Below, piece after piece: positions 9,238 through 53,035 of a DNA stretch of 64,000 bases. The DNA is from an uncultured delta proteobacterium (lineage in GTDB: Bacteria > Desulfobacterota > Binatia > UBA9968), in NCBI GenBank assembly GCA_963737905.1, contig CAVTUQ010000027.1:75635-139634 (forward strand). The letters are read 5' to 3'. The position numbers and the translations under genes were made by a program. Within the stretch, counting starts at the first letter, position 1, and each line of letters opens with the position of its first letter. The notes under the pieces are model-generated. The model was not told the origin of the DNA. It saw only the letters and a list, made by a program, of their open reading frames with translations, and ran no database searches.

Positions 9238-12923
<3,686 letters not shown>

Positions 12924-45265: not shown

Positions 45266-45463
45266 GGCTGTCGGCCCATAGCGTCCTCTCGGCAGGTTCT
45301 CGCCTCCAGTCAGTTGCAGAACCTAGAATTCGGCTGGCTCGTGTGCTAGATAAGAAAGACGTTTCTTCCACCGCAACCCTTATAAAATCGCGATGACCCG
45401 TGGGCGTGGAGCCTGTAAAAGGTTAAAATAAGAGCCTAGCAGGTAGCTTAAGACAAAGTTCCT

Positions 45464-45539
45464 TCCCCGGTAGCTCAGTCGGTAGAGCAGTTGGCTGTTA
45501 ACCAATTGGTCGGGGGTTCGAGTCCCTCCCGGGGAGCCA
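45464..45539 (+). tRNA. tRNA-Asn (GTT)
   Basis: 76 nt; TCCCCGG/CCGGGGA acceptor stem, TAGCTCAGTCGGTAGAGC D arm, CT-GTT-AA anticodon loop, GTTCGAGTC T loop, encoded CCA. Confidence 0.98.
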
Positions 45540-45730
45540 GATTTCAGAAAGGCCACTTTTCAATCGAGAAGTGGCCTTTTGCTTTTGGTAGGCAGAGTTC
45601 GTAAGTGCAAGTATGTCAAAGGGTTTTCGGTAGTTAGGAATCAGGGTGCCGTCTTTCCAAAGGCAGTTCGAGAGTACAAAATCGAGGATACGTCGCTTCT
45701 CCTTCATTTCTTGTTTTTCGTAAAGCTTGA
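45498..45730 (-). pseudogene. 3' remnant of a large serine recombinase reading into the tRNA antisense strand
   Basis: LYEKQEMKEKRRILDFVLSNCLWKDGTLIPNYRKPFDIL...IWLPGRDSNPRPIG*; resembles the C-termini of tRNA-adjacent large serine recombinases; N-terminal catalytic part absent. Confidence 0.7.
45548..45586 (+). terminator. Terminator downstream of tRNA-Asn, supplied by the element
   Basis: AAAGGCCACTT-ttcaatcgag-AAGTGGCCTTT followed by TGCTTTT. Confidence 0.7.
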
Positions 45731-45915
45731 GCCCCGACCTTCTAAGCCGCTTCGAGCAAGTTGCACGCGAGCAGCTCAAGCAGGTCGTGACCAACAGGGT
45801 CTCTCAGTTTTTCATCGTGGATTCTTACAAAGTCGAGGGCAAGGATCCGCTCGTGGACCGTACCCGGTCGCAATTCGGGTTGAGTTTATTTTATCCCTTG
45901 GATAACAAGGTATCC

Positions 45916-45980
45916 TTGTTAAATTAGAAGATTAATAAACTCTCGATTTGCGCAGGTTTAATAATCTGCTAATTTAACAA
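45916..45980. promoter_or_regulatory. 25-bp inverted-repeat operator of the AbiE operon
   Basis: ttgttaaattagaagattaataaac / gtttaataatctgctaatttaacaa (23 of 25 complementary, 15-bp spacer), ending 2 bp before the AbiEi ATG. Confidence 0.8.
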
Positions 45981-45982
45981 AC

Positions 45983-46780
45983 ATGGCTAGTTCTACAGGC
46001 AGCAAAATAAACCAGCTCCTCAAGGCATGGCCGTCCGGCACGGTGGCGGTGTTGCCCTGGCTCGAAAAACAGGGCGTCTATCAACAGCTCGTCCACGAAT
46101 ACGAAAAAACTTCCTGGGTACGCACGATAGGCCGCGGCGCCTATGCCAGGGCAGGCGATAAGGTCGAATGGACGGGCGGTTTGTATGCCATACAAGAGCA
46201 AATGGGTCTTCCCATACATGCGGGCGGAAAAACCGCTCTTCAAATACAGGGATATGCCCATTTCCTTGCGATGGGAAAAGGCGCAACAGTATCGCTCTTC
46301 GGACCTCCCGATATGAAACTGCCCGCGTGGTTCAAGCATTATCGCTGGGATATCAAAGTCCGCTACACCGCGACAAATCTTTTTGCCGGGCAAGTCGATC
46401 AGGGGCTCACCAAAAAGGACATGGGGCCGTATTCGATCAAAGTATCCGCACCCGAGCGCGCCATGATGGAAGTTTTGTATGGAGTTCCACTAGTCGAGTC
46501 CTTTGAGGAGGCGAAATTACTAATGGAGGGGCTTACCACATTACGCCCCCGAGTTGTGCAGAGCTTGTTAGAAAAATGTGCCTCGGTCAAGGTCAAGCGG
46601 CTATTCATGCTTCTTGCCGAAAGCTGCAAACATGCCTGGGTAAGAAAAATCGACCTGACGAACGTGGACTTCGGAAAAGGAAAACGCGCCCTGGTTAAGG
46701 GAGGACGCTTCGATCCCAAATACCAAATCACCGTTCCGAATATAGCACCCGCGGGCTCTGCTCCTGGAGCGCGCTCTTGA
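45983..46780 (+). CDS. Type IV toxin-antitoxin antitoxin, AbiEi family
   Basis: KINQLL..WP.G...WLEKQG, GRGAY, HAGGKTAL.IQG.AHF, SAPERAMME, SVKVKRLF, GKGKR. Confidence 0.9.
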   Translation: MASSTGSKINQLLKAWPSGTVAVLPWLEKQGVYQQLVHEYEKTSWVRTIGRGAYARAGDKVEWTGGLYAIQEQMGLPIHAGGKTALQIQGYAHFLAMGKGATVSLFGPPDMKLPAWFKHYRWDIKVRYTATNLFAGQVDQGLTKKDMGPYSIKVSAPERAMMEVLYGVPLVESFEEAKLLMEGLTTLRPRVVQSLLEKCASVKVKRLFMLLAESCKHAWVRKIDLTNVDFGKGKRALVKGGRFDPKYQITVPNIAPAGSAPGARS

Positions 46781-47697
46781 AGGACAGCCCGTTCTTCAAA
46801 CAAGCCGAATTGATGTTGAAAACAATACCGCACGTCGCTGCGGAAAACTGTTTTGCATTGAAAGGCGGCACGGCGATCAATCTGTTTGTGCGGGACATGC
46901 CGCGATTATCGGTGGACATCGATCTGGCATATCTGCCGGTGGATGAACCGCGCGAAACGGCACTGAAAAAGAGCAGTGAAGCCCTCGGCCGCATTGCGTC
47001 CGCAATCAAGAAAGCGATTGCGGGTACGAGGGTTCAGGAAAGTCGAGCTCGTGAACCAGATCATGTGATAAGGCTTATCGTCTCGACAGGGACGACGCGA
47101 ATCAAAATCGAGCCGAACGAAGTCATTCGAGGAGCGGTCTTTCCGTCAGTGGTGCGTGAGTTAAGCCGGCACGCGGAGGATCTTTTCGAGCTTTCGGTGA
47201 GCGCTCTCTCTCTTTCGCTGGCTGATCTTTATGGCGGTAAACTCTGTGCTGCGCTGGACCGCCAGCACCCACGGGATTTGTTCGACGTGAAGATTCTCCT
47301 GGACAACGAGGGCATCACAGACGAGATCCGCAGGGCCTTTGTCGTCTATCTCGCGAGCCACGATCGACCGATCCATGAACTGCTTGATCCCAAACGGAAA
47401 GACGTGCGGCGGATCTATGAGAACGAGTTTGCCGGTATGCCGATTGAGGAGATCGCTTACAAAGACCTGATCGCGGCTAGGGAGACGCTTATTGAGACGT
47501 TGAAGAAGGAATTGACTGATGGCGAAAAGACATTTCTTGTTTCGATAAAGTCGGGCGAACCAAACTGGAGCGTGATGGGCATCGAAGGTATTGAGAAACT
47601 TCCGGCGCTTCAGTGGAAACTGGTCAACATTCAGAAAATAGGGGCAAAGAAACGTACCGAATTACTGGCCAAACTTAAAAGAACGCTCGGATTGTAG
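46777..47697 (+). CDS. Nucleotidyltransferase toxin, AbiEii/AbiGii family
   Basis: FALKGGTAINLF...RLSVDIDL, GKLCAALDRQHPRDLFD; 4-bp overlap with the antitoxin. Confidence 0.93.
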   Translation: MKDSPFFKQAELMLKTIPHVAAENCFALKGGTAINLFVRDMPRLSVDIDLAYLPVDEPRETALKKSSEALGRIASAIKKAIAGTRVQESRAREPDHVIRLIVSTGTTRIKIEPNEVIRGAVFPSVVRELSRHAEDLFELSVSALSLSLADLYGGKLCAALDRQHPRDLFDVKILLDNEGITDEIRRAFVVYLASHDRPIHELLDPKRKDVRRIYENEFAGMPIEEIAYKDLIAARETLIETLKKELTDGEKTFLVSIKSGEPNWSVMGIEGIEKLPALQWKLVNIQKIGAKKRTELLAKLKRTLGL

Positions 47698-47699
47698 TG

Positions 47700-48152
47700 C
47701 GGCCGAACCAGTCAAAATCAATCGCCGGCACGTGATAGTCAAAGCAGAAATCAACTCGCGACAATCGCTCAGGTCCGTGGGGGAGCAAAACCTACAGAGT
47801 GAGCCCATTTCAAGAACTTATCGTGAAGTAGGGGAGCCGACTCCTTCCAGAGTCCTTGACTCGGGAATGTCACAAAGAAGGAAGGTTCGTTAAATTCGCC
47901 ACATTCGACTTTGAAGTTTTCGCTGGTCAGCAACAGGGGATATCCAGAGCCCGTCCCATGCGGACGCAAGAGGAAATCGACGCCGCCCAAACTAATAGGC
48001 GTACCGTCACGTATCCCGAGTTGCCTCATGTTTTCCCGAGTCTGGATTAGCTGGCCGAAATCGAGATCTTTTCTCCGCTCTTGATGCAGGTAATAAGCGC
48101 ACTGCAACGTGTCAATCCCGTGGAGTAGTAACTTATGAGAGCCTGTATCCAT
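47700..48152 (-). pseudogene. Truncated Rep_trans-family replication initiator (rolling-circle type)
   Basis: LLLHGIDTL..., FKVECG.FN.PSFFVTF.SQ.LW; after a frameshift near 47780 reads ERLSRVDFCFDY (SRxD motif), then breaks at the AbiEii end. Confidence 0.7.
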
Positions 48153-48189
48153 GTTTGATTCTCAAACCGTCTGCTTACGGCCTGCCCGA

Positions 48190-48660
48190 CTATTTGCCCG
48201 GTCGGGTGCGCGTGCGGCGTTGTTTCGCCGCCCGCGCACCGCGCTCAGCGATCCGGGGCTGAAGTGAGCCTAATGATGCTGGCTTGGAACGGGCATTATC
48301 CTCTTGTTTACGAGGCGCTTTTCCTTCTTCTGATTCTTCTATCTCACCCGTCTCTGTCTCCATTTCCTTGAGGTACTTGTTCACGAGGTCGTCATACCGT
48401 TTCCTATCACCCAACACCTCGTCCGGACCCGTCTCCTCCTCCCCTGAGTAGGGGTTGCTGGGGAATCCTTCAGCCACATCTTCCAAAGCTGTAGCAAGCA
48501 AATCCCCGATAATCTCCGTCTTTGTTTTCTTCGGAAACATTTCACAAAGAGCCGAGATTTTCGCAGTCACGTGCAGCGGAAGCCTAATCGACATTTGTTT
48601 AGGAGTGAGCCGAGTATTGTCCGGCGCGGTCCACACTTTGAGGAGATCTTTAGTTGGCAT
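48190..48660 (-). CDS. Small putative ribbon-helix-helix DNA-binding protein
   Basis: KQMSIRLPLHVTAKISALCEMFPKKTKTEIIGDLLATAL fits an RHH beta-alpha-alpha pattern; GAAGGTG RBS; directly upstream of rep. Confidence 0.6.
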   Translation of the reverse strand: MPTKDLLKVWTAPDNTRLTPKQMSIRLPLHVTAKISALCEMFPKKTKTEIIGDLLATALEDVAEGFPSNPYSGEEETGPDEVLGDRKRYDDLVNKYLKEMETETGEIEESEEGKAPRKQEDNARSKPASLGSLQPRIAERGARAAKQRRTRTRPGK

Positions 48661-48679
48661 ATTTGTTCACCTTCCGCTA

Positions 48680-48720
48680 AATGTCATATCGACATTCGTA
48701 ATTAATGTCAAGTGAATGTT
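48680..48720 (-). promoter_or_regulatory. Promoter with repeated AATGTC/GACATT boxes (candidate RHH operator)
   Basis: Minus-strand TTGACA-17 bp-TATGAC; boxes at 48680, 48691 (inverted), 48704 and 48715 (AATGTT variant). Confidence 0.55.
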
Positions 48721-48852
48721 ACAGGCCGGAAAAAAAATATTGATCCCGGATGCAACACGGCTGTATTGTCCCTTTTTATGGCGCTAGGCTTCCTACAGCT
48801 GCGCCGGTTAACGGTCGGCGTTTAAAGACCAAACAGGGGGCATAGACAACTA

Positions 48853-50043
48853 ATGCCATTACTCGATCTGTGGAATGAATCTCCAGATCAGTTGAAGGAC
48901 AAGCAGATCCAACAACTGATCGCTTTTGCGGGTGCGGGAAAGCTCATCGATGGAAGCAAGTGTTGTGAAGAATTCCGATCTTTTCTCGCAACTGTGCCGT
49001 CAGCAAATCTCACTGGGTATGCAGACCAGTGTCTCAGCCATTCTTTTCCCGATTCAGGGTTAGCACTCCAAGATGTCGTCAACGAGGTTGGGTCGAGAAT
49101 TGGTGCGGATGTTGAGCACGGTCGTTATCGAGGTACTTCAAAGCATTTGGGCTTCGACGGATGGTGGACATTCCCCAATCGGCATTCGATCATTGTTGAG
49201 GTAAAAACGACAGATGCATACCGAATAGATCTGAATACAATTGCTGCTTATCGCAAAGGATTGATTGAAGAAAGTAGCATTTCAGAATCATCTTCTTCCA
49301 TGCTCCTGATCGTAGGACGTCAAGATACAGGAGATATGGAAGCACAAATTCGCGGATCTCGTTATGCTTGGGACATTCGCATAATAAGCGTCGATGCTTT
49401 ACTTCGCCTAATGGCCATAAAGGAAGAGGTCGAAGATCCTCAAATCATTCAGCGTATACACAGCATTCTTATTCCCAGAGAATTTACGCGCCTCGACGAA
49501 ATCGCAGACGTTTTGTTTTCTGCTGCGGAAGACATTAAGCAGGAGACAGTCGAAGCAGCAGAAGGAGAAGAGGAAGTTACAGATACAAACAAGACGAAGC
49601 AGCCAAAATTCACCCCGGTAGCATTCCACGATGCTTGTATGGCAAGGGTTCAATCTGTTCTCGGTGAAACACTAGTCAAGCGCTCTCGGGCCAACTATTC
49701 ATCTCCGGATAAATCTATCGTTGTCAATTGCGCTGTCTCGAAGGAACACAATCCAGAAACCAATCCAAACTACTGGTTCGCATTCCACCCTCATCAAAGG
49801 GAATCCTTGCAAAGTAGCTCGAAGTCATACGTTGTGTTTGGTTGCGGAAGCAGTAAGCGCATTTTATTAATCCCATTCTCAGATTTTCAGTCATGGCTTA
49901 ACGGTATGTGGATCACACAAAGAGAAGATTCGTACTATTGGCATGTCGTAATTTATAGAGCAGGCGAAAAGTACTCCCTTCACAGGAAGAAAGGGGAGAA
50001 GAATATTGATGTAACGAAATACCTACTGCCAGAAAATGTATAA
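48853..50043 (+). CDS. PD-(D/E)XK (Mrr-like) nuclease-domain protein with an unassigned C-terminal domain
   Basis: GFDGWW...IIVEVKTT catalytic pattern preceded by LQDVVNE.G; acidic linker; AT-richer codons. Confidence 0.7.
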   Translation: MPLLDLWNESPDQLKDKQIQQLIAFAGAGKLIDGSKCCEEFRSFLATVPSANLTGYADQCLSHSFPDSGLALQDVVNEVGSRIGADVEHGRYRGTSKHLGFDGWWTFPNRHSIIVEVKTTDAYRIDLNTIAAYRKGLIEESSISESSSSMLLIVGRQDTGDMEAQIRGSRYAWDIRIISVDALLRLMAIKEEVEDPQIIQRIHSILIPREFTRLDEIADVLFSAAEDIKQETVEAAEGEEEVTDTNKTKQPKFTPVAFHDACMARVQSVLGETLVKRSRANYSSPDKSIVVNCAVSKEHNPETNPNYWFAFHPHQRESLQSSSKSYVVFGCGSSKRILLIPFSDFQSWLNGMWITQREDSYYWHVVIYRAGEKYSLHRKKGEKNIDVTKYLLPENV

Positions 50044-50141
50044 TAAAAACGCAACGTAACAGCTCGACGAAAGACCGGCGGCCGGTATGTCGGAGTTGTT
50101 TACCTGCTGTACGAAGTGCGGAGATTGACAGAGGAGAAAAT

Positions 50142-50819
50142 ATGGCTGAACAGAAAAAGAGTTTTCCTATGCTGCCCATTGCCCACTGGTGGGCTTTGCG
50201 AAAGAAGTTCAAGCAGAGCATACCTGGGGTTGTAACAGATAATTATCTTGCCACAGTACTCGAAATGGGAGTCAACTCTGCACGTGCGAACGTTCTGCCA
50301 TACTTAAAGAGTCTTGGAATCATTGACGATGAGGGGAAAACGGTCGATAGGGCAAGGCAGTGGAGGGACGATGAGCACTACGCTGAGGTCTGTAAAGCAA
50401 TGGTCAAAGAGGTCTATCCAAAGGACCTATTAGAGGCGGTTCCAAATCCGGATCACGAGCGCACTAAGGCCGAGCGTTGGTTCGCTAATCACACCGGTGC
50501 AGGAGATAATGCTGTAAAACGCATGGCAGCTCTCTACGCTGTAATGGTTAAAGCGGACACATCCCATCAGCCTGACCAAGAAAAGGCTCGAACTCGAAAT
50601 AGGGACAAAGAACCAGCGAAGACCAAGCCGAGCAAGAACGCTACCAGTACCGTTCCTCCTGTAGAATCCGGTACTCAACGAGATTCAACCAACCTGTCAC
50701 GACAACAAGCGCCAGGAATCAACATTAACCTAGAAATTCACATCTCAGCTGATGCCACCTCCGACCAGATAGATCAGATCTTCGAAAGCATGGCAAAACA
50801 CATCTATAGGCATTCCTGA
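50142..50819 (+). CDS. DUF5343-like protein
   Basis: IPGVVTDNYL...LPYLKSLGIIDDEG.T; low-complexity linker; C-terminal ININLEIHI...IDQIFESM; AGAGGAG RBS. Confidence 0.7.
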   Translation: MAEQKKSFPMLPIAHWWALRKKFKQSIPGVVTDNYLATVLEMGVNSARANVLPYLKSLGIIDDEGKTVDRARQWRDDEHYAEVCKAMVKEVYPKDLLEAVPNPDHERTKAERWFANHTGAGDNAVKRMAALYAVMVKADTSHQPDQEKARTRNRDKEPAKTKPSKNATSTVPPVESGTQRDSTNLSRQQAPGININLEIHISADATSDQIDQIFESMAKHIYRHS

Positions 50820-50823
50820 ATAA

Positions 50824-51342
50824 ATGTCTGCAAATGGTCGATATGCACTAGAGCTTGCCAAGAGGCTGAAAGCGGAGGCACCAAAAACGTTTGTTCCTCC
50901 CTCAGAAGGCACCAGACCCACAAATGAATTCATTCTTCCGCACGCCCTTGTACGTAAGACAAGGGGTTATATCGAAAGGGTCGTATTTCAAATAAACGGT
51001 TCCTACGAAAAGGGTTGGTTCGATGGTTGCGCGGTCATGATGCGTCGCCTGATCGAAACGTTGATAATCGAATGTTTCGAGAAATATACAATTGCTGACA
51101 AGATCAAGAATCCGAAAACCGGAGACTTCCTCGCTTTAGGGGATCTCATCGAAAAAATGATTCAAGAGACAAGCTGGAACCTTGGAAGAAACACAAAACA
51201 GGCGTTACCCCGACTTAAGAATATCGGCGACCAGTCTGCACACAGCCGAAGATATAACGCACACCGCGAGGACATCGATAAGATATCTCATGATTTTCGA
51301 GTGGTTTGCCAGGAGCTCATCTACATTGCTGCTCTGAAATAG
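50824..51342 (+). CDS. HEPN/DUF4145-like protein
   Basis: INGSYEKGWFDGCAVMMRRLIETLII; LKNIGDQSAHSR (Rx4H-like site); starts 4 bp after the DUF5343-like stop. Confidence 0.7.
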   Translation: MSANGRYALELAKRLKAEAPKTFVPPSEGTRPTNEFILPHALVRKTRGYIERVVFQINGSYEKGWFDGCAVMMRRLIETLIIECFEKYTIADKIKNPKTGDFLALGDLIEKMIQETSWNLGRNTKQALPRLKNIGDQSAHSRRYNAHREDIDKISHDFRVVCQELIYIAALK

Positions 51343-51515
51343 GCAACTAACCGGCGCCGGCTACTCCGCCAGATAGAGGGATTAAACCTCGAGTCTTCAG
51401 GTCTTATCACGCACATCGCGCTGCTGAATCTCCCAAATTCTTTTTTAACCGCCCGGTAGCTCGCGGGATTAGTACCGCCAATTCACTTTCCACTCACTTC
51501 TTGATCGTATTTTGC

Positions 51516-51543
51516 ACCCCCCGTGTTACTGAAAACGGGGGGC
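51516..51543 (-). other. Candidate rolling-circle origin/nick hairpin (Rep_trans/MOBT type)
   Basis: Minus strand GCCCCCCGTTTTCAGTAACACGGGGGGT: 8-bp GC stem with TAAC in the loop, resembling the C-run...TAACA...G-run nic hairpin of ICEBs1-type relaxases. Confidence 0.6.
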
Positions 51544-51554
51544 TTGGGCGTAGT

Positions 51555-51770
51555 CTAATGAAATGTCAATCTATGTTGGAGAGGAAAATCGAATCCCGAC
51601 TCCGGATCACAAGTCTCACAAAAGATGAGGTATCCATGGCCCTTTGGGTGCAGGCACAAAGTGACGGTGTGACCATTGGCGACGTGCCGCTTAATGAATT
51701 CACCGAACGACTCCAACACGAAATCTAACTCGCGGTTTCTTTTGTCATGCTTAACTTTTATCTGACTCAT
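51555..51770 (-). CDS. Small hypothetical protein (71 aa) with a CxxC motif
   Basis: AAAGGAAAG RBS; CLH...H..FCETC. Confidence 0.5.
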   Translation of the reverse strand: MSQIKVKHDKRNRELDFVLESFGEFIKRHVANGHTVTLCLHPKGHGYLIFCETCDPESGFDFPLQHRLTFH

Positions 51771-51869
51771 AAGGGCTTTCCTTTCATTCTGTCGTACTTC
51801 GCTGCGGAATTTGTGATGAAGGGAAGATGCACTTCCCAGTGCCCAATATTGGCAGGTCTGGGGAGCCAG

Positions 51870-51950
51870 TTTAGACGAGAAAGCCCTTCGGCAATATGTC
51901 GAAGGGCTTTCTGTATTTTGGAACTACAGTTAATCGCTCGCTAGACCAAG
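51870..51950 (-). pseudogene. Second recombinase 3' remnant (older tandem element) abutting the right att repeat
   Basis: Reads WSSERLTVVPKYRKPFDI(fs)EGLSRLNWLP, homologous to WKDGTLIPNYRKPFDIL...GLSEIWLP of the first remnant. Confidence 0.6.
51878..51919 (+). terminator. Terminator-like hairpin immediately after the right att repeat
   Basis: AGAAAGCCCTTCG-gcaatatgt-CGAAGGGCTTTCT followed by GTATTTT. Confidence 0.7.
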
Positions 51951-52168
51951 ACGGTGTCTTACCGTCTAGATTAGCCTTGCCATTCTCCCAAATAGCTGTT
52001 GTCACAACGCTGTCACCCAAGCGTTTCGGGTCGCATTCAGCTTAAAACCTATCCGATCAGTTCAATCCTGGGGTGAAATCATGCAGTAAGCTGTTGAACA
52101 GTTGCGTGTGCCAGGACTATGATACCTGCTAAAATCTCCATTATTACAAGCGTGTGAGGAGGTGATCC

Positions 52169-53035
52169 ATGGTTACCACGGCACAATACAAGAGTGGCGA
52201 AATCATCATCTGTGAAAACGACCAGGGTGAGACAGCGTATGTCATCGAGAGTGGTCGAGTTGAAGTGACCAAGGACCTGCAAGGCAAAAACATTCACCTT
52301 ACGTACCTTTACCCGGGCGAAACCTTCGGCGAAATGAGCATGATAGACGACAAGCCACGTAGTGCAACCGTAACGGCAGCCGAAGACACAGAGGTGCGTG
52401 TTATTCCGCGAGATCAATTTTTAGAGACGCTCAACAGCAATCCCGAGGTGGCCCTGAAGCTGCTCAAAACGGTTTTCGAGAGACTCCGCGAAGCCATTGC
52501 CATGATTGCGCACTTGCAGAAGGATGATACCACTGTCACTTCGGTGCCGGAGCTGGAACTCCCCGATTTCCTGGTCAGAGCAGGCACGGTTGTGCTGAAC
52601 GGGACCACGCCACAAGCGGCTCAAGCCTTGCCCCAAAACCCATTGCCCATCAAAAAGTTCCCGTTTCGAATTGGCAGGGAGGAAAGTAACGATCCCCTGG
52701 CCCACAACGATTTGAACATACCCGACTCGGTACCGTTCCAGGTTTCGAGACACCACGTGACACTGGTGAACCACGGTGGGCATATCGGTGTCATGGACCG
52801 GGGTAGCACGCTGGGTGCCATCGTTGATGGTCAACTGCTGGGTGGGAAGCATGGTGACCCAGGTCTCGTATTTCTAGGAGCCGCTGGTGGCACGCTTATT
52901 CTGGGGACCGAGGAGTCGCCTTTCAGGTTTCAACTCACTGTGGGAAGAGAACGGGATGTGTCGTCTGATTGGCAACCACCTTCACCATCGGAGAACCGCT
53001 CCGTCCTCAAAAAACTGTTCGAGAGGTGGGGATGA
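52169..53035 (+). CDS. Cyclic-nucleotide-binding domain + FHA domain protein
   Basis: GETAYVIESGRVEV, GETFGEMS.IDDKPRSATV; FRIGR, VSRHH, DRGSTLG; AGGAGG RBS. Confidence 0.88.
   Translation: MVTTAQYKSGEIIICENDQGETAYVIESGRVEVTKDLQGKNIHLTYLYPGETFGEMSMIDDKPRSATVTAAEDTEVRVIPRDQFLETLNSNPEVALKLLKTVFERLREAIAMIAHLQKDDTTVTSVPELELPDFLVRAGTVVLNGTTPQAAQALPQNPLPIKKFPFRIGREESNDPLAHNDLNIPDSVPFQVSRHHVTLVNHGGHIGVMDRGSTLGAIVDGQLLGGKHGDPGLVFLGAAGGTLILGTEESPFRFQLTVGRERDVSSDWQPPSPSENRSVLKKLFERWG

Follow-up and report, generated by a model that had tools for sequence, protein, structure and literature searches.

The 64,000-nt stretch analysed here (contig CAVTUQ010000027.1 of an uncultured delta proteobacterium, positions 75,635 to 139,634; hereafter the window) carries a small genomic island with exact ends next to a tRNA-Asn(GTT) gene. 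We consider it probable that the segment 45541-51859 is what decay has left of a small integrative island that carried AbiE and further defence-type cargo and was placed at the 3' end of the tRNA gene by a large serine recombinase (LSR) of about 533 amino acids (aa), whose attachment site (att) overlaps the 3' end of its own gene. This reading is carried by the anatomy of the locus, the homology of the recombinase, the family-wide overlap of recombinase and tRNA genes, the covariation in a terminator hairpin written in the recombinase tail, and an analogue of the unoccupied site in a related genome. An earlier interpretation of the same DNA, made from the letters alone (the sequence-only reading), had recognised the in-frame core, the swap of the recombinase tail, the boundary and the relic status of the gene, all of which stand, and had added a functional switch with a coupled partner gene, which find no support. 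The features of the locus are collected in Table 1.

The island is flanked by two exact copies of the 10-bp core GGGGAGCCAG (45531-45540 and 51860-51869), and a search of the window returned no others. The left copy takes in the final 5 nt of the acceptor stem, then the discriminator and CCA, and reaches 1 nt past the CCA. On the minus strand both copies read c-TGG-CTC-CCC, in the frame W-L-P, so that the claim of a common codon frame at both ends is exact by sequence and by translation. On the left this frame belongs to a minus-strand open reading frame (ORF) of 98 aa (45498-45794), which converges with the tRNA gene and overlaps it by about 42 nt (45498-45539). It ends in ...SGLSEIWLPGRDSNPRPIG (as part of the longer stretch ...KSGLSEIWLPGRDSNPRPIG); its final 13 codons, WLPGRDSNPRPIG, are tRNA antisense, and the W codon TGG is the antisense of the encoded CCA. 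On the right, 51868-51767 translates on the minus strand to WLPRPANIGHWEVHLPFITNSAAKYDRMKGKPL; the TGA that comes next (51769-51767) shares bases with the ATG (51770-51768) of a 71-aa ORF (51555-51770). Translation thus confirms both that the integrated recombinase ends in WLP-GRDSNPRPIG*, read from the tRNA antisense strand, and that joining the two ends yields an open extension of 30 codons whose stop closes over the start of the 71-aa ORF in an ATGA. The core lies inside the recombinase frame, as had been proposed, and the two junctions support the view that integration replaces the codons after W-L-P.

Four independent observations establish that the right boundary at the second core copy is genuine and the repeat more than chance. 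Of the terminator-like hairpins in 45300-52200, the best two occupy 45547-45580 and 51878-51912, both on the tRNA strand and each 8-9 nt after a core copy. Directly outside the right core stands an older recombinase tail with an internal deletion, here called relic B, which reads ...WENGK...VVPKYRKPFDILPKGFLV* (PKYRKPFDIL) and in the other frame ...EGLSRLN-WLP; its local alignment score is 36, against 16 +/- 2.5 with a maximum of 30 in shuffles (n=500), and it ranks second among the matches to the recombinase fragment in the whole 6.7-Mb genome. In the related genome G022 (locus L096) the tRNA-Asn gene, ...CCCGGGGAGCCAG, is followed directly by TTAGACCAGAAAAGCCCTTTGACAT...AAAGGGCTTTCT, a homologue of the hairpin at the right flank of the window (the similarity is short, missed by blastn and found by MAFFT). 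This sequence unites the left side of the window's left junction with the right side of the right one, as in an unoccupied site, and the hairpin at 51878-51912 would accordingly have served as tRNA-Asn terminator before the present island came. In Geobacter sp. AOG1 (locus L040), finally, a full-length recombinase tail passes at TGGCTCCCC into an arm with TGGGCACTGGAAAG 14 nt from the core; at the right end of the window TGGGCACTGGGAAG stands at the same distance of 14 nt, the common motif being TGGGCACTGGRAAG, and a motif search found this far-arm motif with an exact core in the window and L040 only.

Could the 10-mer nevertheless be a chance repeat, with the true right end of the island elsewhere? 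The sequence-only reading had itself named this as one outcome that would undo it. The repeat is short, and by its number of occurrences it has no significance, the window holding 4 matches against 4.6 expected when one mismatch is admitted. The low G+C content of the island (mostly 45-49%, against 52-56% to its left) goes on to ~52300, and a gene at 52169-53035 matches a contig of G023 at 93% DNA identity, against only ~70% for the left flank, so that foreign DNA continues rightward. An older island, of which relic B is the trace, explains this foreign DNA; a second exact copy of the core has an expectation of only ~0.12 per 64 kb on both strands; and a chance repeat would not account for matching terminators at equal spacing after each copy, for a recombinase-tail relic directly outside the right one, for the unoccupied-site analogue or for the far-arm motif common to the window and L040. 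We therefore regard a boundary elsewhere as extremely improbable.

The enzyme that left this island can be recognised from its last codons. The 98-aa ORF is 90% identical to the protein P0001 over 84% of its length (E = 4.5e-42). P0001 has 533 aa with the domains PF00239, PF07508 and PF13408 (resolvase, recombinase and zinc ribbon), and matches the serine integrases A118 (1.3e-8) and TP901-1 (catalytic domain, 1.4e-6). The window fragment has 52 longer homologues, the full-length ones of ~514-564 aa with the same three domains, and the YARVSS catalytic region is present in the alignment of intact relatives. The fragment itself is homologous to the C-terminal region of full-length members and matches no Pfam family: with residues ~452-533 it lacks the N-terminal resolvase domain with its serine nucleophile as well as PF07508 followed by PF13408, which are present in all three LSRs of L040. 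Judged by these homologies, the recombinase is a large serine recombinase. As a fragment of a family member the window ORF can give no functional enzyme, and no full-length paralogue was found in the window's genome (6.7 Mb, 87% complete), which agrees with the description of the gene as a relic that has lost its 5' part. A tyrosine integrase was considered as the agent and rejected, the island containing none.

The overlap with the tRNA is not peculiar to the window. Relatives were scanned in genome and metagenome collections, and the best 80 loci of each were kept, giving 160 recombinase loci; tblastn confirmed as relatives at least 570 of 600 and at least 569 of 595 matched stretches in the two scans. 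The tail was located by a script motif in 137 of the 160 loci and missed in 23, where the regular expression was too strict. At 97 of these 137 loci the recombinase ORF runs antisense into a tRNA called by ARAGORN: tRNA-Asn(GTT) in 59 cases, tRNA-Gln in 29, and tRNAs for Ser, Ala, Glu, Leu, Arg and Asp in 9 together. An in-frame TGG lies exactly over the encoded CCA in 96 of the 97. A tRNA-like 3' fragment without an ARAGORN call follows the tail at 26 loci, no tRNA-like sequence at 10, and at 4 the contig breaks off in the tail or shortly behind it. Counting more crudely, by the longest ORF, which picked the wrong ORF in at least 9 loci, gives 101 overlaps among the 160 and no tmRNA cases. 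The third recombinase of L040, only 24% identical, also ends ...VWLPSADSNHGQGG* inside a tRNA-Asn, so the layout occurs in at least two distant clades. The overlap of the attachment site with the 3' end of the recombinase gene is a trait of the family.

Among the 26 tRNA-like fragments are some tRNA-Asn genes that a group I intron divides. Such introns (Rfam RF00028, 81-102 bits) interrupt tRNA-Asn(GTT) at the anticodon-loop region in several relatives (L005 1229-1490 in G021, L094 816-1064 in G024, L109 2568-2817 and L110 3725-4019), and in other genomes of the family 250-550 bp separate the 5' part of tRNA-Asn from the 3' part; ARAGORN misses such genes. Recombinase ORFs beside intron-split tRNA-Asn genes read past the usual TAA (...PIGYKCP...). 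L109 and L110, in which the tail is followed by the 3' half of tRNA-Asn, were considered as forms of attP, the attachment site on the element, and were rejected as intron-split genes of this kind. In L085 and L021 only the 3' half of tRNA-Asn, to the anticodon loop, follows the tail before unrelated sequence, and no group I intron was detected; these loci could hold another anticodon-loop insertion, or an attP with a long tRNA fragment.

The recombinase tail appears to have a role on the opposite strand as well. On the tRNA-sense strand, the tail folds immediately after CCA into a hairpin of 14-15 bp, behind which comes a T-run; at the protein level this region is the conserved YQK(K/E)KA...GL(S/F)(E/D)IW. 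The hairpin was aligned in the window and 38 relatives, the latter taken by recombinase identity of at least 61% only; 5 of the 43 loci at this identity, in which the script had not placed the tail, were left out. Across the 39 rows the stem positions pair in 80.6% of cells against 68.5% in shuffles (0 of 500 reach the observed value), 12 of the 14 stem pairs show changes on both sides, and sliding the partner by one column lowers pairing to 58-63%, all with a structure taken from the window's own sequence and with rows that are mutually related. The folding z-score is below -2 in 48% of 128 tails and in 8% of 125 control stretches, each from 1.5 kb upstream within the same gene. With its G+C hairpin, T-run and compensatory changes the tail has the marks of a predicted rho-independent terminator. 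As the hairpin is part of the element, the element would replace the native terminator of the tRNA. A native tRNA-Asn hairpin is seen in G028, G010 and G024, and tail relics stand beside tRNA-Asn in G014, G021, G020, G022 and the window. The persistence of such relics there would be explained by a tail that doubles as the tRNA terminator, and the many gene-caller 'proteins' ending ...WLPGRDSNPRPIG would likewise be explained by selection of the tail as terminator. This would amount to a clean case of DNA selected on both strands.

Comparison of junctions indicates where the exchange may take place. Identity between tail-to-tRNA junctions and tail-to-other junctions ends after TGGCTCCCC (L028 against L040, and L188) and after TGGCTCC in L047, and it spans CTGGCTCCCC in the window. 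By these ends of identity, the exchange would fall in the final ~8 nt of the tRNA gene. Degenerate tRNA-like sequence opens the far arms, for example CTGGCGGACGAA against AGCGCGGACTCGAA of the tRNA, which would fit binding of both arms by the same protein. A tail relic also occurs at the far end of a ~34-kb element in G066 (L188 3040-3165 against L028 11430-11548), where it is 100% identical to the last 112 nt of the resident recombinase, the ~50 nt upstream of it being only ~70% identical; so abrupt a change points to gene conversion, or to a tandem copy since lost by deletion.

What sequence of events could have produced the locus? In the mechanism that we favour, the last element-encoded codons (...S-E-I-W) would form the P' arm, with TGG as the antisense of the encoded CCA, and the exchange would fall inside the ~9-10-bp identity block GGGGAGCCA(G). 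After integration the body of the tRNA would remain host DNA, and the element would supply the last few tRNA bases along with a new rho-independent terminator written in the tail codons of the recombinase. The integrated recombinase frame would run through the tRNA antisense to a stop, which in tRNA-Asn is a TAA from the anticodon loop; on the circle or in a tandem array the same frame would run into the far arm of an element. In the window, an older element would have left relic B, its hairpin serving as tRNA terminator in a state like that of G022. The present island would then have integrated at the tRNA, shifting relic B to 51870 onward, and later deletions would have taken ~450 recombinase codons and part of a 355-aa backbone gene. 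Without these codons the island, 6.3 kb in size, is fixed in place. In G065 a 6.2-kb island with its own recombinase stands at tRNA-Asn with a second element, carrying two recombinases, behind it, which may be the same accretion process caught earlier.

Several points weigh against this account. Tandem arrays mean integration beside an existing tail, that is, at an attL-like site, which implies a looser enzyme than strict attP x attB recombination would allow. Canonical serine integrases recombine attP with attB only, and CcrAB is reported as looser in site use. The exchange point is placed by where identity ends, in three junction pairs and L047. Neither an excised circle nor the attP of any intact close relative came to light. 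In L008 (the closest intact relative, 84% identical) and L189, the 13.6 kb from the recombinase to the contig start hold no copy of the core 9-mer, nor does the DNA before the recombinase gene in L108-L110, and a search for far-end repeats in the intact relatives L008-L087, up to 9.9 kb upstream, found none above 11 nt except a second tail copy in L047. The far arm of the window resembles that of the L040 island with a different LSR (24% identity), and the window island may be a mosaic. The remaining 52% of tails do not fall below z = -2, and more distant subfamilies have no clear hairpin. The neutrality of the tails, to which we now turn, is argued from their lack of conservation.

The sequence-only reading saw in the change of tail a switch: the circle would make a distinct functional recombinase isoform with a 30-aa extension, together with an ATGA-coupled 71-aa CxxC protein, possibly a directionality factor, and integration would swap the tail and uncouple the partner. 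The extension is indeed open, with its TGA over the ATG of the 71-aa ORF, and the latter is probably a real rare small gene, having three homologues, all of 71 aa and 70-79% identical, in a collection of 5.8 billion protein clusters. The reconstructed junction of G066 (L188) also gives an extension of 31 codons. Precedent can be drawn from the integration-dependent immunity of the BPs type (PMC4557955) and from DsiB, for which McMurdie et al. raised the same possibility (PMC3146451), as excerpts of both papers describe them. Homologues of the 71-aa ORF, however, occur in none of the 160 recombinase loci and in none of 400 other genomes of the phylum, which speaks against a coupled partner, and an open run of 30 codons has a chance probability of (61/64)^30, or ~0.24, and is not remarkable in itself. 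The distance from W to stop varies from 3 to 170 codons, with a mode of 13 (39 of 96 loci), and is set by the tRNA. Ten junctions without tRNA-like sequence, beyond those of L040 and G066, carry unrelated tails of ~8 codons up to fusions of more than 300; tails at junctions of this kind include SLNRPRTFSS, KSNQGYFRAENVHRAY, TKPGIKQPLHL, CNQSPANSSPRLIH, VVKAYRTVLLKPSLKSVAYWRV of P0016 and a fusion of more than 300 codons in L119. Rebuilding attP in relatives had been proposed as a check, and the far arm can be read in two. In L040 the extension has 14 codons and stops before a hairpin; in G066 the next sizeable genes (169 aa and 958 aa) are on the other strand. Neither has an adjacent coupled gene, and the extensions share neither sequence nor length. 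The residues GHW(E/K) that the window does share with L040 are explained by the conserved DNA motif of the far arm. The alternative C-termini are not conserved, and the switch is very unlikely. By the proposed check it fails; for this one lineage, where no intact relative with the 71-aa gene was found, it keeps a small probability.

Regulation might act instead at the level of RNA, the integrated state silencing the recombinase through convergent transcription driven by the strong tRNA promoter, the shared hairpin and an mRNA 3' end complementary to tRNA-Asn, a brake that would be gone on the circle. The convergence of gene and tRNA in the window, the prevalence of a 13-codon distance from W to stop, the position of the hairpin inside the ORF and upstream of its stop, its conservation by covariation, and the recurrence of the layout in two LSR clades only 24% identical and in DsiB are all compatible with this idea. 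The idea draws on layout, not on expression; the hairpin is on the element side and hence present in both states, and compactness, with attP beside the integrase gene, explains the layout without regulation. We think such a brake unlikely. Equally doubtful to us is a more general proposal, in which a very large LSR clade found across phyla would be specialised for CCA-3' ends, its tail serving as protein, attP half-site and replacement terminator at once, with tail swap and antisense overlap with a highly transcribed tRNA serving to silence or destabilise the recombinase once integrated and to keep it active on the circle. What is observed is that the sequence on the other side of the junction, whatever it may be, determines the tails past the core. 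The changed C-terminus is most likely a structural consequence of the compact layout, and neutral or nearly so.

One of the fused tails touches on another system. In L119 (~9900-10795) the recombinase frame continues after W-Y-P without a stop for more than 300 codons, with ...NPNGDPDAGNLPRVDP..., a stretch which we take to resemble a type I Cas7 (Csd2-like) protein. The L119 island may have inserted beside or into a cas operon.

How does this family relate to known integrative elements? In domain order (resolvase, recombinase, zinc ribbon) it agrees with the integrases of A118/LI, TP901-1, phiC31 and Bxb1. Canonical phage serine integrases usually cut in protein-coding genes or intergenic sites, with a 2-bp crossover in common. 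The target here, in contrast, is a tRNA 3' end that is restored on integration, and tandem arrays imply integration beside an existing tail. In mycobacteriophage BPs it is reportedly a repressor gene that changes, through a tyrosine integrase, and its two products differ in function. In our family the gene is that of the recombinase itself and its alternative tails are not conserved; what it has in common with BPs, going by the excerpted description, is an attachment site inside a coding sequence whose C-terminus is altered by integration (PMC4557955).

A closer precedent than BPs, whose gene is a repressor, is offered by the islands at the ssrA 3' end of Dehalococcoides, which are moved by DsiB, a CcrB-like serine recombinase of ~540 aa (McMurdie et al. 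2011, PMC3146451). According to excerpts of that paper, attL and the DsiB ORF overlap in every case, the stop codon falling beyond the island, the C-termini are divergent, and the gene is possibly fully functional only on the circle. An ORF that overlaps attL and stops outside the island is found likewise in the window and at 97 of the 137 family loci. Also alike in those excerpts are the position of the LSR beside attL on the strand opposite the RNA gene, the short direct repeat of the RNA gene's 3' end that flanks the island and recurs at its far boundary, and tandem accretion, some islands having no integrase; here tandem islands occur in L040, and relic B in the window. The Dehalococcoides target is a tmRNA gene with a 20-bp repeat, whereas ours are tRNA genes, mostly for Asn and Gln, with a 9-10-bp core at their CCA end. 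The window island has no second recombinase and nothing like the small recombinase DsiA or the six-gene integration module; G065 and G066 do carry a second full-length LSR upstream. A terminator in the tail codons is a feature of our family that the excerpted description of DsiB does not include. The likeness is one of layout and published description, not of sequence comparison, and by this analogy the window family may be viewed as a variant of the DsiB/ssrA kind, the overlap and the same speculation having been published in 2011. No later work on DsiB appeared among the matches listed. The paired LSRs of the Geobacter elements (L040 7565-11563; G066:C1:104918-109141) are two full-length genes on the same strand, a few hundred bp to ~1.2 kb apart, the upstream one 37-42% identical to P0001 and, in L040, a KfrA_N-domain gene lying between the two. 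Such pairs recall CcrA/CcrB and DsiA/DsiB.

Tycheposon-like elements of Prochlorococcus include 27 of 937 with an LSR (937 minus 910 with a tyrosine recombinase; Hackl et al., bioRxiv 10.1101/2020.12.28.424599). The preprint passages describe island-associated tRNA genes, tandem accretion, partial tRNA copies and degraded integrases, as here; these passages do not mention an overlap of ORF and att or the exchange position, and the likeness is by description, not by comparison of the recombinases. Elsewhere, serine recombinases are stated not to be known to target tRNA genes (the Islander paper, PMC4383910), and serine-recombinase elements to integrate within genes (a review of mobilizable elements, PMC5704250). 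This LSR family breaks the rule that tRNA genes are used by tyrosine integrases only (PMC4383910), as the 97 of 137 loci show. We found no published description of an in-frame W over CCA, of an LSR spread over many tRNAs and phyla, or of a terminator written in a recombinase tail, though supplementary tables (e.g. those of TIGER/Islander) might hold cases.

The value of these observations lies in the family-level rule and in the dual coding, and much less in the proposed switch. Serine integrases are preferred tools for inserting large DNA. An LSR clade with a near-universal tRNA end as its natural target might provide ready-made landing sites in many bacteria. For the window itself the outcome is a precise annotation: a defence island of 6.3 kb, immobile and exact at both ends, which accretion built up at tRNA-Asn.

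Table 1. Features of the island and its flanks (positions in the window; a dot marks a feature without strand).
Feature	Position	Strand	Basis
tRNA-Asn(GTT) with encoded CCA, integration target	45464..45539	+	ARAGORN; Rfam RF00005, 71.6 bits
Relic of large serine recombinase gene, last ~82 codons homologous	45498..45803	-	90% identity to P0001 residues 452-533
Left (tRNA-proximal) core copy GGGGAGCCAG, 10 bp	45531..45540	.	exact match
Predicted tRNA-Asn intrinsic terminator, dual-coded in tail codons K-A-T-S-R-L-K-S-G-L-S	45547..45580	+	15-pair stem then GCTTTTGG
AbiEi antitoxin/regulator	45983..46780	+	PF11459 1.6e-50, PF17194; PADLOC AbiEi 3e-88
AbiEii nucleotidyltransferase toxin	46777..47697	+	PF08843 8.5e-37; PADLOC AbiEii 6.1e-115
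127-aa ORF, truncated N-terminal part of 355-aa backbone protein	47769..48152	-	63% identity over 118 aa to L040:14686-15753
156-aa ORF, no family match	48190..48660	-	
396-aa ORF, no family match	48853..50043	+	
DUF5343 protein, candidate defence family PDC-M34A	50142..50819	+	PF17278 2.1e-9; PADLOC PDLC04589 9.1e-14
DUF4145 protein	50824..51342	+	PF13643 4.5e-5
71-aa ORF, C-x-H...C-x-x-C, not linked to recombinase family	51555..51770	-	3 homologues
Far arm of island (P arm); on the circle, 30-codon extension RPANIGHWEVHLPFITNSAAKYDRMKGKPL*	51767..51859	-	translation
Right (distal) core copy, 10 bp	51860..51869	.	exact match
Relic B, older recombinase tail with internal deletion (upper coordinate approximate)	51871..~51990	-	second-best match to recombinase fragment genome-wide
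Predicted terminator hairpin of relic B, 16-pair stem then GTATTTTGG	51878..51912	+	hairpin search; homologue directly after tRNA-Asn in G022

By its family matches the cargo of the island appears defence-like, comprising an AbiE pair, a PDC-M34A candidate and a DUF4145 protein. The adjacent AbiEi and AbiEii genes, which overlap by 4 nt (46777-46780), have the make-up of an AbiE type IV toxin-antitoxin system. The DUF5343 gene is followed 4 nt on by the DUF4145 gene (50142-51342), and the two may form a two-gene defence candidate. The 156-aa and 396-aa ORFs have no family in Pfam, PHROGs or PADLOC, and the 71-aa and 127-aa ORFs none in Pfam or PHROGs.

To the right of the island, the gene that follows tRNA-Asn in G028, G010, G024 and G017 (MASAKQVVGN...) is not present in the window. 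A stretch of ~60 nt right of relic B (~52005-52077) recurs with 79-90% identity in G020, G032, G028 (twice), G004 and G034; it has no Rfam match at the gathering threshold and could be a small repeat or RNA element. The gene at 52169-53035 encodes a protein with a cyclic-nucleotide-binding domain, for which PADLOC matches only that part of Pycsar-type effectors, and is probably recently transferred DNA belonging to the older island.

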